Source: a virus (lineage: Duplodnaviria; Heunggongvirae; Uroviricota; Caudoviricetes). From it: a stretch of 6,857 nt of DNA. The stretch covers positions 1 to 6,857 of the IMG/VR virus record IMGVR_UViG_2648501206_000004, one strand, 5' to 3'. The notes beneath the pieces were generated by a model, which saw nothing but the letters and a program-made list of their open reading frames with translations, was not told where the DNA came from and made no database searches. Of this stretch, positions 1 to 6,857 are shown piece after piece (the first letter of the stretch is position 1; each line of letters opens with the position of its first letter). The translations under genes were made by a program, and so were the position numbers.

Positions 1-1
1 C

Positions 2-556
2 GTCAGTGTGCTTAACCTGGGTACTATTGATGAACCAGGTCACGCAGATAACACCGCCACTCTCAAACTGAAAAAGACAGCACCGTTCTCTGCTCTGTTG
101 TCTGTTAATGGCGAGCGTCATTCCCAGAAGTCACTGGCAGAATGGATTGAAGACTGGGCCGACTACCTTGTGGGTTTTGATGCTAATGGTGACGCTATTC
201 AGGCAACAAAAGCGGCTGCGGCTGTCCGTAAAATCACGATTGAAGCAAACCAGACCGCTGATTTTGAAGATAATGACTTCAGCGGCAAACGCTCCCTGAT
301 GGAGTCTGTCGAAGCGAAAACCAAAGATATTATGCCTGTGGCATTTGAATTTAAATGCGTTCCGTTTGAAGGTCTGAAAGAACGTCCATTTAAATTACGC
401 CTCAGCATTATCACTGGCGATCGTCCTGTACTGGTTCTGCGCATTATTCAGCTGGAGGCGGTGCAGGAAGAAATGGCTAACGAATTTCGTGATCTGCTTG
501 TTGAGAAATTCAAAGACAGCAAAGTAGAAACCTTTATTGGTACTTTCACCGCCTGA
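2..556 (+). CDS. Prophage hypothetical protein, 5'-partial (open to the window edge); possibly YfdQ-like
   Basis: The frame is open from position 2 (codons gtc, agt, gtg...) with no stop back to the edge, so the listed GTG start at 8 is probably internal. Stop TGA at 554..556. It lies immediately upstream of, and co-directional with, an HD-domain gene, as yfdQ-yfdR does in KplE1 (recalled synteny, not a sequence match). Confidence 0.6.
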
Positions 557-568
557 TTTCATTACTGC

Positions 569-590
569 AAATGCCCCTGCGGGGGCATTT
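569..590 (+). terminator. Putative intrinsic terminator or attenuator hairpin after the first ORF
   Basis: Perfect 9-bp inverted repeat AAATGCCCC / GGGGCATTT with a 4-nt loop TGCG, 13 nt after the stop. The T-tract is short (TTTAT), so termination may be partial. Confidence 0.45.
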
Positions 591-683
591 ATGGAAACGT
601 AATTGACTCAATAATCGCCGGATGGTGAGGGCTTCCTTTTACCAGAATTCAGCGTGGTGCAGCACATATACGCGGAGAACAAA

Positions 684-1220
684 ATGTCATTTATTAAAAC
701 TTTTTCCGGGAAGCATTTTTATTATGACAGGATAAATAAAGACGACATCGTGATTAACGATATCGCGGTTTCCCTTTCAAATATCTGTCGCTTTGCCGGT
801 CATCTTTCACACTTCTACAGTGTCGCCCAACATGCGGTGCTTTGCAGCCAGCTGGTGCAGCAGGAATTTGCTTTTGAAGCGTTAATGCATGATGCAACAG
901 AAGCATATTGCCAGGACATCCCCGCGCCACTGAAACGCCTTCTTCCTGACTATAAACGGATGGAAGAAAAAATAGACGCCGTAATCCGTGAGAAATACGG
1001 GTTACCTCCTGTTATGAGCACGCCAGTGAAATATGCCGATCTCATTATGCTGGCAACCGAACGCCGCGATCTCGGGCTTGATGATGGCTCTTTCTGGCCG
1101 GTACTGGAAGGCATCCCGGCAACAGAGATGTTCAACGTGATTCCAATGCCACCGGGCCATGCCTACGGGATGTTTATGGAACGCTTTCACGAGTTATCGG
1201 AGTTACGCAAATGCGCATGA
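684..1220 (+). CDS. yfdR: HD-domain phosphohydrolase (5'-deoxynucleotidase YfdR/YfbR-like)
   Basis: HD-superfamily motifs are visible in the translation: FAGHLSH, then LMHDATEAY (the HD dyad), then PVKYADLIML. Start placed at ATG 684 (MSFIKTF...) with a GGAG Shine-Dalgarno 6 nt upstream, rather than the GTG at 654 in the ORF track. This gives 178 aa, the length I recall for K-12 YfdR. The symbol rests on motif and recalled length and synteny, not a search. Confidence 0.8.
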   Translation: MSFIKTFSGKHFYYDRINKDDIVINDIAVSLSNICRFAGHLSHFYSVAQHAVLCSQLVQQEFAFEALMHDATEAYCQDIPAPLKRLLPDYKRMEEKIDAVIREKYGLPPVMSTPVKYADLIMLATERRDLGLDDGSFWPVLEGIPATEMFNVIPMPPGHAYGMFMERFHELSELRKCA

Positions 1221-1573
1221 ATGTTTTCGAAATGGAAGGGTTTCTTCGCGGGAGATGTGTACCACGAGACCTGAAAGTGAATGAAACGGATGCTGAATAC
1301 CTGGTGCGTAAATTAGATGCGCTTGAAGCTAAATGTGCAGCACTGGAAAACAAAGTAATACCAGTGTCAGCTGAACTGCCACCAGCAAATGAAAGTGTTC
1401 TGTTATTTGATGCTAACGGAGAAGGCTGGCTGATTGGCTGGCGTTCTCTCTGGTACACATGGGGGCAAAAAGAAACCGGAGAATGGCAGTGGACATTTCA
1501 GGTCGGGGACCTTGAAAACGTCAATATCACTCACTGGGCAGTAATGCCGAAAGCACCGGAGAATAAGAAATGA
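1211..1573 (+). CDS. yfdS: Small prophage hypothetical protein (YfdS-like)
   Basis: 120-aa ORF overlapping the upstream stop (ATG at 1211 with GGAG 8 nt upstream; an alternative ATG at 1217 forms an ATGA overlap with the stop at 1218..1220). Coiled-coil-like N-terminus. The symbol is inferred from position after the HD gene and from the recalled 120-aa length of YfdS. Confidence 0.55.
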   Translation: MRMNVFEMEGFLRGRCVPRDLKVNETDAEYLVRKLDALEAKCAALENKVIPVSAELPPANESVLLFDANGEGWLIGWRSLWYTWGQKETGEWQWTFQVGDLENVNITHWAVMPKAPENKK

Positions 1574-1785
1574 GCGTGATAAAAACTCATACAGGAATTG
1601 TTATTACCCGAAACGGTCCGCAGGTAAAAAAACTGCACCAGACAAAGCGGATGTGGGTCGTCGGAAAAAACGAGTTTTACCACAAAGAAACCGGACGCCG
1701 CCACTTTGCAGAAAATACGCGCCGCCGACTGCTCCTGGACAGCATCAGGCCAATTAAACAGGTAGCAACCATAGAACAAAATTAA
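1570..1785 (+). CDS. Small basic prophage hypothetical protein
   Basis: 71-aa ORF whose ATG overlaps the upstream stop as ATGA (1570..1573), with GGAG 8 nt upstream. Lys/Arg-rich. No family recognised. Confidence 0.5.
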   Translation: MSVIKTHTGIVITRNGPQVKKLHQTKRMWVVGKNEFYHKETGRRHFAENTRRRLLLDSIRPIKQVATIEQN

Positions 1786-1846
1786 TTATCAGGACTGAAA
1801 TTTGATATTACTGCCCGTGTGCAGCGGGTTAAGTGGAGAAACAGCC

Positions 1847-2056
1847 ATGGCAAAACTAATGAAAGCGAGCCAATGGGGACGCCGTGAATTCTCTAATGGC
1901 TCAATTCCTGACAACCGAACGATAAAACGCTGGGTCGAGAACGGTCTGCTCATGGGGCGTATCGTGGACGGTTCTGTTTTTGTCTGCGAAACAGAAAAAT
2001 GGGGAGTCGACTCAATGGTTAGTCAAGCTGTTCGCAAGTTAATAAATGAGGGGTGA
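1847..2056 (+). CDS. xis: Excisionase (lambda Xis-like recombination directionality factor)
   Basis: About 69 aa from ATG 1847 (GGAG at 1835..1838). The translation (ASQWGRREFSNGSIPDNRTIKRWVENGLLMGRIVDGSVF) parallels the lambda Xis winged-helix region (QEWNARQRRPRSLETVRRWVRECRIFPPPVKDGREYLF). The stop abuts or overlaps the integrase start, the classic xis-int arrangement. The TTG start at 1802 in the ORF track is considered less likely. Confidence 0.7.
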   Translation: MAKLMKASQWGRREFSNGSIPDNRTIKRWVENGLLMGRIVDGSVFVCETEKWGVDSMVSQAVRKLINEG

Positions 2057-2058
2057 CC

Positions 2059-3237
2059 ATGGCGGCAAGGCCACGTAAAAAAGAATACAGACATCTTCCT
2101 GATTATCTGATTTTTGATAAAGATCGAGGTGTTTATAAATTCACACTTATTACCGGAAAGAAGAAAAATATAGGTAAGGATAGGGCAATAGCCATTGCAA
2201 TCGCCAGAGAGTACAACCTGAGGATGCGACCAGAATTATCTCCATCAGTAGATAATCTTATTAGAGAATCTGGCGGTGTTATCGGAGAAGCAAAACCATT
2301 TGCTGAACATGTTGATCACATAATGGCCCGAATTATCGAAGACGAACGTCCTTCCCAGAGCACCTTAGATGACTGGAAAAATGACGCTCTACGCGTAAAA
2401 GCGTTTTTCGTAAATGTTCCGGCATGCGATATCGAACTTGAACACGTTAATACCTACATCAACAAATATCATGCCAGCGCATCCGCAAATGTGCAGAACA
2501 GAAAGGTCAGCTTTCTTAAAAAGTTGTTCTCTTATGCGGTCGATGAATCACTAATGCTGGATAACCCGGCCATCAGAAAAAAAATGCGTAGGACTGATGA
2601 GAAGAAAAGACGGCGCCTGTCACTCGAGCATTTTATAGCTATCAGGCAGGCCGCTGCACCATGGTTAAGAACAGCAATGGACCTAGCATTGCAGACTACA
2701 CATGCACGACTCGAAGTATCGCGAATCCGTTACTCAATTCGCGAACCTAAAGACGGTATATGTGGATGTGTCTGGTTCGAACAACCACAAAATGGCATAT
2801 ATGGGACGCTTTACATCCACAGGCAAAAAGTGCAACAAAAAGAGGCGTCACACGTTGCAATACCAATTGGTGAAGAGTTGAAACGGATAATTGACGATAG
2901 CCGAGATAATGTGGCCAGTCCGTTTGTCGTTCACAGGCTCCCAGAACGCCAAGTTAAACGCAGCAAAGAGGTTTCACATCCTACTCAAGTTGCACCGGAC
3001 TATTTGAGTAGGTCGTTTTCAGCTACACGGGACAAACTAGGTTTATGCGACAATCTACCAATGGATGAAAGACCAACCTTTCACGAAATTCGAGCACTAG
3101 CAGCGCATCTATTCGATCAGCAGGGTATCGATCCACAAGGACGAATGGCGCACAGCGATGCGAAGTCAACCAAGATCTACACGCAAAATCATATAGATTG
3201 GGTTGTCGTTCCCCATGGAGAAATTAAAGCCAGCTAA
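2059..3237 (+). CDS. int: Tyrosine site-specific integrase, lambda Int family, with N-terminal arm-binding domain
   Basis: The N-terminus (MAARPRKKEYRHLPDYLIF...GKDRAIAIAIAREYNLRM) parallels the lambda Int arm-binding domain (MGRRRSHERRDLPPNLYI...GRDRRIAITEAIQANIEL). The C-terminus carries HEIRALAAH (box II H-x-x-R) and AHSDAKSTKIYT, with the H-to-Y spacing of lambda Int H333/Y342. Start placed at ATG 2059 (GAGGGG Shine-Dalgarno 6 nt upstream); a GTG at 2053 would overlap the xis stop as GTGA. Confidence 0.92.
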   Translation: MAARPRKKEYRHLPDYLIFDKDRGVYKFTLITGKKKNIGKDRAIAIAIAREYNLRMRPELSPSVDNLIRESGGVIGEAKPFAEHVDHIMARIIEDERPSQSTLDDWKNDALRVKAFFVNVPACDIELEHVNTYINKYHASASANVQNRKVSFLKKLFSYAVDESLMLDNPAIRKKMRRTDEKKRRRLSLEHFIAIRQAAAPWLRTAMDLALQTTHARLEVSRIRYSIREPKDGICGCVWFEQPQNGIYGTLYIHRQKVQQKEASHVAIPIGEELKRIIDDSRDNVASPFVVHRLPERQVKRSKEVSHPTQVAPDYLSRSFSATRDKLGLCDNLPMDERPTFHEIRALAAHLFDQQGIDPQGRMAHSDAKSTKIYTQNHIDWVVVPHGEIKAS

Positions 3238-3271
3238 TAATAAATTACTCCCTTTATTGCTTTAGTATAAA

Positions 3272-3303
3272 GCAGAGCAAACCAAATTGGACGGGTTGCT
3301 CTG
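3272..3303. terminator. Bidirectional intrinsic terminator hairpin between convergent int and the cargo gene
   Basis: Inverted repeat CAGAGCAA(ACC) / (GG)TTGCTCTG at 3273..3283 and 3293..3303 with a 9-nt loop, about 35 nt past the int stop and 28 nt past the cargo-gene stop. The flanks are AT-rich on both sides. Confidence 0.5.
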
Positions 3304-3330
3304 TGTTGGAAGTTGAGGAATGTATTAATT

Positions 3331-4182
3331 TCAAAGTGAGTAATTGGAGAGTTCTTCAATCATTGACCGATAATGTATACCGATACTATCGGCAAATTTT
3401 TCGCCCATCCCCTCAACTGACGCAATTAGGCAGTCTGTAGCAACCTTCAGGGATATTATGACTAAGCAGATGTCAGCTTCACTGGGTGCACCATGACCGC
3501 TAAATTCATCAATCCTGTGGATAGCCAGTGGCAATGGATGAGCCAGATTTGATAGTAACTGGTGATGTAGTGCAATGTCGGCTAACCGCGGGCAGCGAGC
3601 TTCGAACTCAGCTTTGGTATAATACATTTCGGCCCTGTTTTTGAGACTATTCTTTTGTTCTTTAGATAGTGAACTATAGAATTCATGGTTCACTATCTCC
3701 TCCTGCTGCTTTGGTATGCCGGTGAAAAACTCCTCCAGTGATTCTTCAGATTCACCAGCCTTCAGTCTGATATCACGCCATTTAACATTTCTGTCTTTCT
3801 GGAAAATTCGAAAACGAAAGTCAGCCTCCGCTTCCGAGACCGTTTCCGTTCCGTAATAAAAAAGCGCCTGAAAATTTTCCATCACACTTCTGGACACAAG
3901 TGCGATAGTGGTTACATCCCATACTGTATCATCGGGATTAACTCCGTTTCGCAGTACTGGTAGTAGTTTCTTAAGACTATGCGCAGTCAACACTTGACGA
4001 GTGAAAATATTTGCAGCCCGTATTCCCCTGCCGTCAGTCTTAATTCCGCTTTGATTCAGTGATATGGCCGCGGAAATTTCACAAGCGCGGCAGAAGATCT
4101 TATAAAGGCTAATGTAAGACCTCTCAACCTCAGTGTGTTCTCGGAAACGAATGTTACTGCCTTTTTTAGTTCTTTTTTTCAT
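3331..4182 (-). CDS. Orphan cargo (moron) protein of unknown function, 283 aa; candidate accessory or defence gene
   Basis: Long minus-strand ORF convergent with int. ATG at 4180..4182 is preceded on the mRNA by AGAGG with a 7-nt spacer. Hand counts on two 60-nt samples inside it gave about 40% and 47% GC, against about 53% for one sample in the downstream autotransporter. Basic N-terminus (MKKRTKKGSNIRFREH). Two R-x6-H spacings in the C-terminal half (RLADIALH, RIDEFSGH). I do not recognise the family. Confidence 0.7.
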   Translation of the reverse strand: MKKRTKKGSNIRFREHTEVERSYISLYKIFCRACEISAAISLNQSGIKTDGRGIRAANIFTRQVLTAHSLKKLLPVLRNGVNPDDTVWDVTTIALVSRSVMENFQALFYYGTETVSEAEADFRFRIFQKDRNVKWRDIRLKAGESEESLEEFFTGIPKQQEEIVNHEFYSSLSKEQKNSLKNRAEMYYTKAEFEARCPRLADIALHHQLLSNLAHPLPLAIHRIDEFSGHGAPSEADICLVIISLKVATDCLIASVEGMGEKFADSIGIHYRSMIEELSNYSL

Positions 4183-4374
4183 TATCCAGCCTCTAGTAGT
4201 TTATTCTGGCATTATGTCACACAACTCTTCGAAACTATTCAAACATGGGGAGAAACCACCATGTAAGCCATTGAAGTATATAGAGCAGATTATGTCGAAA
4301 AAGCACTGTTTGTTTATACATGCAAATGGTACTTCTAACCAGCAATAGCGCGGCTCTCAGCGTTTTACAAGCGG

Positions 4375-4423
4375 CGTCATGGGGTGTCGGGGGTCGGAGG
4401 TTCAAATCCTCTCGTGCCGACCA
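4375..4423 (+). repeat. Prophage att core: 3' 49-nt fragment of tRNA-Pro(GGG) (proL-like), lacking the 5' half
   Basis: Anticodon loop AUGGGGU (anticodon GGG), T-arm GGAGG-TTCAAAT-CCTCT, acceptor 3' strand CGTGCCG, discriminator A and CCA are all present. The complementary 5' acceptor strand CGGCACG is absent from the preceding 100 nt, so this is not an intact tRNA. It matches my recollection of the E. coli proL 3' end. Confidence 0.65.
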
Positions 4424-4431
4424 AAAATCCC

Positions 4432-4463
4432 AAAAAAAACCAACCGTAAAGGTTGGTTTTTTT
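4432..4463. terminator. Rho-independent terminator, bidirectional (native tRNA-Pro terminator; also serves the convergent autotransporter gene)
   Basis: A8-CCAACC-GTAAA-GGTTGG-T7: a 6-bp GC-containing stem extended by an A-run/T-run, with a 5-nt loop. It lies 9 nt after the tRNA CCA end and about 60 nt past the minus-strand autotransporter stop. Confidence 0.8.
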
Positions 4464-4524
4464 ATATCTGCATTTAATTCGATAAACAGACCGCGACACA
4501 TCACGGCCTGTTTATTGTCTGTTA

Positions 4525-6857
4525 TCAGAACGTCCAGACCACACCCGCCTGGGTATTCCACGGCGATTCTACCCCTGCGCCATTGCCATAGCTGACTGAC
4601 AAATGACCGCTTAACGTCGGGGTAAACGATGACCTTATCCCAGCCTGATAAACGCCACTGGTTCCAGCCACATCATTATTAAATTTGCCATCGTCATTAA
4701 CTTTCACCTGGTTAGAATCGGCGTATTCCTGACGCACGGCGGCTTTCAGCCAGGGTTCCAGCGTCGTACCGTTTTGCAGGTCCATGTGATAGCTTACCGC
4801 CGTTCCCGCTTCAGCGCGTAATATCCGGGTATTTCCCACGTCCGCGCGCATGCCGTTTGATAACGTGTAGTCCTGACCATCTGTGGTAAAGCCGGTAAAG
4901 GCCAGATAGGGTCTAACACTCCACAATCCGTCAACCCAACGGAACCCGCTCTCAACATGAGCACCCGCGCCGTTACTATTGTAATCGCCAAACGCTGTTG
5001 CCCCATTACTCATCTTGCCATGGATGGTGTTGGCAAAACGGTCAACTTTCACCACCCCATCAACATAGGCACCGTTCTGATGCTCCCAACCGGCATAAGC
5101 ACCCAGGGTATAGCTATCGACATTGCCTTTGCCGCCGCGATCAAAACCAATATCAGAATGAGAGTAACCAAAGAACAAGCCGCGAATTGTGCTGCTTTCT
5201 TCACGGGAGAAACGGCTATCGATACCGAGCGTCAGGCCCGTCAATGTTTGCTCAAAACCAGCTCCCGCATCAGTGGTCACGTTGTTGCGGGTGTTAATTG
5301 CCGAACTCCACATCGCCGTATCGTAACTAACGCCTTTTACGCTACCAAGACGCTCACGCACGGTGTCCAGTTCTGCATCAAATACCAGCGGTTGTGCGGC
5401 CGCCATATTCAGCACATCAGTGGTTGAAGGGGTAATTTGCGCGCGATTCTCTGCCAGACTCCAGCTATGGTTGCCATTATCCAGCAAGGTATATTCATAC
5501 GTACCGATATCAACAACGCCTCCGGCATTGCCCAACGTAAATGCAGCATCACCGCCGCCCGTTGTTACCAGTGTAAGGCTATCTCCTGCTGCCGGGCTGG
5601 CACCGGTGTCCGTCACGAATATTTTGAAATCACCTGTTGCCTGACCGGTGACGTTGAGCTGATCGCTCTGATGATTAGCCATATCGGTACGCATATAAAA
5701 ATTGCCGTTTCCCGACAGGGTATTGGTGGTCAACGTAATGAAATTTTTCGCACTTGCCGTCACTGATGAACGAGTCACTGGCTCATCCATCATAATCACA
5801 TTTGCGTCAGACATCGCAAGGTTGGCTAAGTTGAGGAGGGTGTTTTGGTTCGTCGTAGTGATATCGGCAATGATGGTCCATACGCTATTTTCGAGCGAAA
5901 CGTCCGCTTTGCTGGTATCCACGGCACCATGCGTTCTAAAAGAAGCGCCCTCAGAAACCACTACCTTACCCACCAACATTGCGGGTGCATAATTTATTTG
6001 CGGCTTCATGACCTCAAGAATGCCATCATTCCCTCTGACTGACACGTTAACCATTGTGCCAGCCCAGACGTTAGCGCGGCCATTGTTGATAACCATATTT
6101 TCAGAGATGGCTTTTGAGGAATACGTGATACTTCCATTCTGATCTGATCGACCGAGATCATATACCGCATTTGCCTGCACTCTCGTCCCAGTATCCTTTC
6201 CCAGCGATTGCATAGTGGCATGCTCATCAAGGATAGTGTCAATGGCCTGCGTGTCCTCCATAACAATAAGCCCGGAACCATCATCCAGTTCATAATTTTT
6301 TGACACACCATCTTTTATACTAAATTGGCCTTTACTGTTTGTACCACTCACTTCCAGCGCATTCGTTGAGACAATTAATTTTCCGCCTGCTTTTTTATCA
6401 ACGCCAGTTGCAGTCCCGCCATCCATAACCTCCAGTAAGCCGCCACTATCTACAGTAGTATTATAAGCGAAGTCATTTTCTTCAACTCGCAAACTTCCGC
6501 CGTTTTCCAACAGCATATTGTTTGCAATTCCATTCTTGATATCGAACTGACCGAGACGGTTTGTTCCGAATACCTCCATGACCCGCGTGGTTGCTTTAAT
6601 AGCACCGCCTGCCTTCTGATCTACCGCAAATGCTAATCCCCCGTCTTTAACCTCCAGTAATCCTCCCTTTTCGATAGCGGCAAAGACGGCAATCCCATCT
6701 TTTTCAACAATTAAGCGCCCGCCTTTAATCGTGGGATCATTCGCCGCGCCATAAACCTGTAGCACACCATTATTGAGCGTAGTCTGGTTTGCCGCGCCAC
6801 CCATTTGAACAATTTGATAACCATCATTTAATACTGAGTACTGATGAATCCCCTAAT
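4525..6857 (-). CDS. yejO: AIDA-I/Ag43-type autotransporter adhesin, N-terminally truncated by the window edge (YejO-like by position)
   Basis: The C-terminus ends ...PWNTQAGVVWTF, a typical autotransporter beta-barrel terminus, preceded by about 280 aa of alternating-polarity beta-strand sequence. The passenger region has repetitive G-G-x-L-x-V motifs typical of a beta-helix. The reading frame stays open from 6804 to the window end at 6857, so the true start is outside the window. The symbol is by synteny only: as I recall, K-12 has an autotransporter gene, yejO, immediately downstream of proL on the opposite strand. Confidence 0.85.

Follow-up and report, generated by a model that had tools for sequence, protein, structure and literature searches.

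The displaced 3' end of proL as the very probable attR core of a lambdoid prophage between yejM and yejO

The pairing of a regenerated tRNA gene with a displaced fragment of it is an established principle, set out in the Islander survey, in which a 3' fragment was found in 3,760 of 3,919 islands and an anticodon-centred site in 2,083 (PMC4383910). That phages integrate at the tRNA-Pro gene between yejM and yejO has itself been reported, for Shigella flexneri 1c (PMC4924310); a whole-word literature search for "proL" returned nothing on the yejM/yejO site. Here, we analyzed a stretch of 6,857 nt of DNA (the window) that makes up positions 1 to 6,857 of the virus record IMGVR_UViG_2648501206_000004. 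Positions 4375-4431 of the window are very probably the attR core, that is, the integrase-proximal junction of a lambdoid prophage inserted in proL between yejM and yejO. This reading is supported by sequence comparison, which identifies the fragment, tells the host flank from the phage flank, places the breakpoints, and yields matching attB, attL, and attP sites.

The displaced piece of proL occupies positions 4375-4423 on the plus strand and reads CGTCATGGGGTGTCGGGGGTCGGAGGTTCAAATCCTCTCGTGCCGACCA. It is identical at 49 of 49 nt to the 3' end of proL, a 77-nt tRNA-Pro(GGG) gene called by ARAGORN just downstream of yejM in E. coli EC20-4B-2 (L001:6871-6947). A first-pass annotation had recognized here the 3' 49 nt of a tRNA-Pro(GGG) through the CCA, and the comparison bears this out; judging from the alignment, so exact a match with proL cannot be chance. 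The fragment starts four bases before the anticodon loop and spans 4 nt of the 5' strand of the anticodon stem, the loop itself (ATGGGGT, 4379-4385, with the anticodon GGG at 4381-4383), the variable loop, the T arm, the 3' strand of the acceptor stem, and ACCA. Identity with the tRNA is broken at 4374, where the window has a G and the tRNA a C. At the other side, identity between the window and the attL of EC20-4B-2 runs for 8 nt past the CCA (AAAATCCC); hence, the direct repeat is 57 bp long (4375-4431, plus strand). The same 57-mer is present at both ends of the EC20-4B-2 element, at L001:6899 (within and after the intact proL) and at L001:23803 (beside yejO), 16.9 kb apart, and the crossover would lie somewhere inside it. 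The direct repeat that was sought in the first pass therefore exists in EC20-4B-2, at a length of 57 bp rather than 49 bp.

The locus at 4375-4423 does not form the complete cloverleaf by which tRNA detectors identify a functional tRNA gene. ARAGORN found zero tRNAs in the whole window, and the Rfam tRNA model gave only a local match of 15 bits at 4375-4420, with a gathering score of 29. When the 5' half of the tRNA was aligned to the DNA upstream of 4375, 508 of 5,000 shuffles scored as well in a local alignment of 31-32 nt, as did 248 of 5,000 in a global alignment. We rejected a residual tRNA 5' half because the upstream 31-43 nt did not resemble it significantly, either in the window or in seven relatives, by local and by global alignment. 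The earlier statement that neither a 5' acceptor strand nor a D-arm is present is thus essentially right, with one caveat, an acceptor-like 7-mer (TAGCGCG) at 4346-4352, to which we return below.

To the right of the core, the window continues into the bacterial chromosome. We assembled a synthetic attB by joining the yejM 3' end and proL of L001 to window positions 4432-4800. This sequence was contiguous, in the uninterrupted order yejM-proL-terminator-yejO, in 3,784 of 5,426 complete E. coli genomes, with an identity of up to 99.6%, and a contiguous attB was absent from 1,642. The proL terminator and yejO are thus contiguous with proL in the former genomes, in agreement with the choice of proL as the integration site. 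Positions 4183-4600 were also searched against the same collection. For the empty-site genomes listed, the hit starts at query base 193 (window position 4375) and overlaps an annotated tRNA-Pro and yejO. This is the comparison with an uninterrupted proL locus that had been proposed as a check. Because empty-site homology begins exactly at 4375, the boundary is fixed to the 57-bp repeat at 4375-4431; the right boundary had been claimed to within about 50 bp, and it stands as a junction at the repeat but with the interval widened to 57 bp. DNA from 4432 on, with its terminator and yejO, is accordingly best assigned to the host on these matches. The flanking host gene, yejO, lies at 4525-6840 on the minus strand, convergent with proL, and encodes an AIDA-type autotransporter (Pfam AIDA, Pertactin, and Autotransporter domains; annotated as yejO in all matching genomes).

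A separate observation concerns the far end of yejO. Homology of the window to every E. coli yejO ends at 6840, and an in-frame stop follows at 6853-6855, after this point. The last 17 nt of the window (6841-6857, CTGATGAATCCCCTAAT) match the IS10/Tn10 outside end printed in PMC2705183, so that IS10 or Tn10 seems to have interrupted yejO in this genome.

To the left of the fragment lie the phage genes yfdQ (DUF2303) and yfdR (HD hydrolase), a gene for a DUF551 protein, two small ORFs, the integrase gene, and an ORF of 283 aa. The phage P arm of attP/attR follows at 4245-4374 (plus strand) and aligns with six prophage attR and two free-phage attP sequences. In the eight-sequence alignment, the P arm is conserved from ATGGGGAGAAACC, at window position 4245, up to the core; homology starts at about 4245 in all eight sequences and is lost upstream, and blastn breakpoints agree at 4245. 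The conserved blocks are ATGGGGAGAAACC, CATTGA-GTATATAG, and CACTGTTTG. The integrases of the two free phages, Eeyore (PP925821) and Flotzy (PP925827), share 77.6% identity with that of the window. Directly downstream of int, both phages carry a homolog of 4245-4374, then a tRNA-Pro core, and then a terminator of the type found at attL. Their core runs from CATGGGG to the CCA plus three or four A's and includes 46 nt of tRNA. The gene order in both is xis-like ORF, int, attP, umuD, dinI, and then invertase or tail-fibre genes, and this circular order of int, attP, and dinI exactly predicts both of the prophage ends that are observed. The DNA left of 4375 can thus be ascribed to the phage, with a P arm homologous to the Eeyore/Flotzy attP arm.

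The association extends beyond E. coli. Homologs of the integrase gene with a same-strand tRNA-Pro fragment downstream occur in Enterobacter, Pseudocitrobacter, Erwinia, Entomohabitans, Serratia microhaemolytica, and Citrobacter, and the pairing of this integrase lineage with tRNA-Pro is general because the same fragment recurs downstream of int in these other genera. Among phage records, none covers more than ~40% of window positions 1-4460. We also noted that the end of the Gifsy-2 record (NC_010393.1, 44257-44334) matches window positions 4389-4465, from the T arm through the terminator, at 85.9% identity; this match may be a tRNA-Pro-like att remnant or an included host flank.

The cognate integrase, of 392 aa, is encoded at 2059-3237 on the plus strand and is transcribed toward attR. 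Its N terminus matches the arm-DNA-binding domain Arm-DNA-bind_1 (PF09003; residues 3-58, 26.7 bits against a cut-off of 22), the protein matches the PHROG_1 integrase family (E = 5.7e-30), and the score for PF00589 is 19.4 bits, under the cut-off of 27.1. Structure alignment was nearly full length: residues 4-359 align with the lambda Int structures 5j0n and 1z1g (E = 4.5e-11). The N-domain (residues 3-58) aligns to lambda Int from residue 3 onward, and the alignment spans the catalytic domain, including the PTFHE(I/L)R box, and ends at query residue 359. The locus had earlier been read as the signature of a tRNA-targeting integrase, and this reading gains from the presence of a lambda-type integrase within the element and from the Eeyore and Flotzy homologs, which abut an attP with a tRNA-Pro core. 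The comparison also refines the earlier account, in that the integrase gene adjoins the attR junction and not the intact tRNA.

Directly upstream of int, at 1847-2056 (plus strand), is a small ORF of 69 aa in the position of a 225-bp ORF of Eeyore and Flotzy. Its product had only a weak helix-turn-helix match (DUF4817, E = 0.0045) and no match in PHROG or NCBIfam; from its position, it is probably the excisionase. Between int and the P arm lies a variable cargo slot of ~1 kb. In the window, this slot holds orf283 (3331-4182, minus strand), which lies inside the prophage but does not belong to the recombination machinery; it has no match in Pfam, PADLOC, PHROG, or NCBIfam. The slot contains no gene in Eeyore, Flotzy, L021, L023, and L024 and is filled with other genes in Ec42, MJ-T, LD91-1, and ET791.

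If 4375-4431 is attR, an intact tRNA gene would be expected at the other prophage end, as the first-pass annotation had proposed. Only 72 of all genomes searched carry most of the window. In the complete E. coli set, no genome is identical to it; among complete genomes, EC20-4B-2 comes closest (98.7% identity over window positions 573-6840), and the best draft contigs are L012 and L013 (99.27%). Between yejM and yejO, EC20-4B-2 has first the intact proL, then a DinI pseudogene and degraded tail genes, and after these yfdR, int, orf283, and the fragment, with 16.9 kb of degraded phage DNA between the intact proL and the fragment. Ec42 carries a complete lambdoid prophage (~48 kb) that is bounded by the fragment on the yejO side (L004) and by an intact proL on the yejM side (L005); here too, a DinI-like gene sits beside attL. 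Hence, two related genomes that share this type of junction beside yejO have an intact proL in direct orientation at the far end, as expected. We infer that the window's own replicon likewise carries an intact proL at the other end, outside the window.

Two further observations were made at this end of the prophage family. A gene of the DUF262/GmrSD type, a modification-dependent restriction family, lies just inside attL (L001:7792-9681 and, in another strain, L011:16639-18528), so that both ends of the family seem to carry accessory cargo. In the metagenome-assembled contig L028, an intact tRNA-Pro(GGG) at 2732-2808 and a T-arm copy at 5714-5733 (an exact 20-mer) lie <3 kb apart, with only the C-terminal half of an integrase between the two tRNA copies, and the second copy diverges upstream of the T arm. 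This contig seems to hold what remains of an element of the same kind after extreme reduction.

A terminator had been described after the fragment, and we found it as a hairpin at 4433-4463 with a CCAACC/GGTTGG core and a run of seven T's (dG -16.5 kcal/mol, z = -6.3). None of 200 shuffles folds as well, and a terminator scan also detects it. The hairpin belongs to the uninterrupted proL locus, being located downstream of the intact proL in the empty-site genomes; from its fold energy, the scan, and these genomes, it is the original host proL terminator, a bidirectional hairpin shared with the convergent yejO. A different terminator, derived from the phage, follows the regenerated tRNA at attL: AACCAGCC...GGCTGGTTTTTTT (L001:6948-6990; L005:3042-3000). 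The regenerated tRNA thus receives the phage's own terminator, and the host terminator remains with the displaced fragment. The phage terminator and the host terminator for which it is exchanged share one architecture (an A-run, then a GC stem and a T-run), and the phage terminator is thus potentially bidirectional as well. At 4433-4505 on the minus strand, the Rfam model for the OrzO-P antitoxin RNA scored 27.9 bits (gathering score 60, E = 0.28); we rejected this match as driven by the terminator hairpin and most likely due to chance, and set aside minor Rfam matches (HPnc0260 and others) as look-alikes of the T arm or terminator.

We suggest the following route of integration. In the free phage, attP lies downstream of int and is made up of a P arm of ~130 bp, a proL copy that extends from the anticodon stem to a few bp beyond the CCA, and the phage's own terminator. 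This attP would be recombined with proL by a tyrosine integrase of the lambda type, which has an N-terminal arm-binding domain. At attL, the 5' part of the host proL would be joined to the phage-borne 3' part and the phage terminator, to give an intact gene; at attR, the junction seen in the window, the phage P arm would be joined to the displaced 3' part of the host gene with its original terminator. At fragment-intact enterobacterial junctions and in both free-phage attP sites, tRNA identity starts no more than 3 nt from the last base pair of the anticodon stem. Because identity begins at or within 3 nt of this base pair, an anticodon-centred site is the likely arrangement. Strand exchange would then take place in the 7-bp anticodon loop ATGGGGT (4379-4385, plus strand), a putative overlap region suggested by the identity start points and by Islander class 'A', with the two halves of the anticodon stem as presumptive inverted core sites. 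The outer P arm contains one conserved ATGGGGA(G/A)AAACC motif, and GGGG(A/T)A-like motifs recur two or three times in the P' arm, both at attL (L001:7000-7037) and in the Eeyore attP. Such GGGGA-type repeats are candidate arm sites, and ATGGGGAGAAACC at 4245-4257 (plus strand), kept at the outer edge of the P arm in eight sequences, is the candidate arm-type integrase site of the window.

The alternative that survives best accepts the junction as a genuine attR and differs over what the element can still do: it would be a defective, immobile remnant, and the fragment a fossil scar instead of a working site. Relatives with the identical orf283-fragment-yejO junction include degraded elements, such as that of EC20-4B-2, which at 16.9 kb contains pseudogenes; L011 and L016 have lost int and have yejM within 10 kb; L028, as described above, combines a truncated int with an intact tRNA-Pro and fragment less than 3 kb apart; and the adjacent yejO bears an IS10 end. 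Since several same-junction relatives are degraded (L010, L011, L016, and L028), the element may no longer be able to excise. Against this, the int, xis-like ORF, P arm, and core of the window are all intact, and in the closest contigs, L012 and L013, the early region seems complete over 10 kb or more. We regard a dead element as possible, if rather unlikely.

Much less credible is an origin of the fragment in some other proL-targeting element, for example, one of the CP4-57 type seen in Shigella flexneri 1c, with the integrase of the window unrelated to it and the whole a tandem or replaced island. The site is indeed used by at least one other type of integrase, which adjoins the intact tRNA (PMC4924310), a contiguous attB is missing from 1,642 E. 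coli genomes, and most of the window is found in only 72 of all genomes. However, the P arm at 4245-4374 is homologous to an attP arm that abuts a homologous int in the free phages and at loci from several other genera, and in Ec42 and EC20-4B-2 a single element spans attL to attR. We consider this origin very improbable. A decayed tRNA pseudogene or a chance tRNA-like sequence with no integration event, in line with the failure to call an intact tRNA at the fragment, can be dismissed almost entirely: the degenerate-pseudogene reading is refuted by the identity with proL (49 nt, exact), the contiguous attB, and the sharp breakpoint at 4375, alongside matching attL and attP sites and flanks that are phage DNA to the left and syntenic host DNA to the right.

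With 4375-4431 read as attR, the acceptor-like 7-mer deserves separate comment. TAGCGCG lies 32 nt upstream of the core-starting CATGGGG, where it fits the register of a 78-nt tRNA-like fold, and six of its seven positions could pair with the 3' strand of the acceptor; as background, 1.1% of the 7-mers in the window reach at least 6/7. The corresponding 7-mer of relatives, YGGYGCG, can pair at six to seven of seven positions in elements of E. coli, Enterobacter, Pseudocitrobacter, Entomohabitans, and Serratia. In ET791, the counterpart (L008:4712-4789) is annotated in RefSeq as a 78-nt tRNA-Pro, a call that is rejected by ARAGORN and scores 18 bits with Rfam, below the cut-off of 29. The 78-nt stretch at 4346-4423 of the window folds no better than shuffled sequences (z = -0.04), and no D stem is present. 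Overall 5' similarity to the tRNA is marginal at best, with 4 to 21% of shuffles scoring as well, and L023, the one locus with a changed host acceptor, shows no compensating change in its 7-mer. We therefore regard the 7-mer as a vestige or a protein-binding motif. That the attP of this phage group embeds a full-length tRNA-Pro mimic, kept by selection beyond the 3' part needed for integration, seems to us quite improbable. Were it selected, a tRNA-like RNA might be transcribed from the attR hybrid or from the copy in attP, or the 7-mer might serve recognition by the integrase or a host factor.

For annotation, the analysis supplies the right boundary of the prophage (4375-4431), its attachment site in proL, and the link between this site and the integrase at 2059-3237. 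It further accounts for spurious second tRNA-Pro calls that some pipelines may make at such junctions, as RefSeq does in ET791. The feature is already known, a textbook signature of phage integration at a documented site; it adds nothing new in biological terms, because the displacement of a 3' fragment by tRNA-targeted integration is long established and the site was reported before.

Compared with the described systems, the locus has the following in common with Eeyore and Flotzy: the integrase (77.6% identity), a homologous P arm, a tRNA-Pro core, a phage-borne terminator, and an order of xis-like ORF, int, attP, and dinI that corresponds to prophage ends of the window type. These phages differ in that their identity block starts 3 nt later (at CATGGGG, 46 nt), no cargo separates int from attP, and the rest of the genome is different. 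The cryptic gtrIC prophage of Shigella flexneri 1c (PMC4924310) likewise occupies the tRNA-Pro downstream of yejM, with yejO as the far boundary, but has a CP4-57-like integrase of 414 aa encoded 210 bp from the intact tRNA, and its attR is reported to be deleted. With lambda, the window has in common the near full-length Int alignment with an arm-binding N-domain, an int transcribed toward att, a small ORF upstream of it, and long P and P' arms with repeated short motifs, whereas lambda targets the intergenic gal-bio attB instead of a tRNA gene and its Int has low sequence identity. Finally, like Islander class 'A' (PMC4383910), the window combines a tyrosine integrase with an identity block that covers the tRNA gene from its anticodon stem-loop to its 3' end, in a system where the tRNA is regenerated at one end and its displaced 3' fragment left at the other. 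Nothing essential separates the two; the window adds only that int lies beside the displaced fragment, with a cargo gene between int and the P arm.
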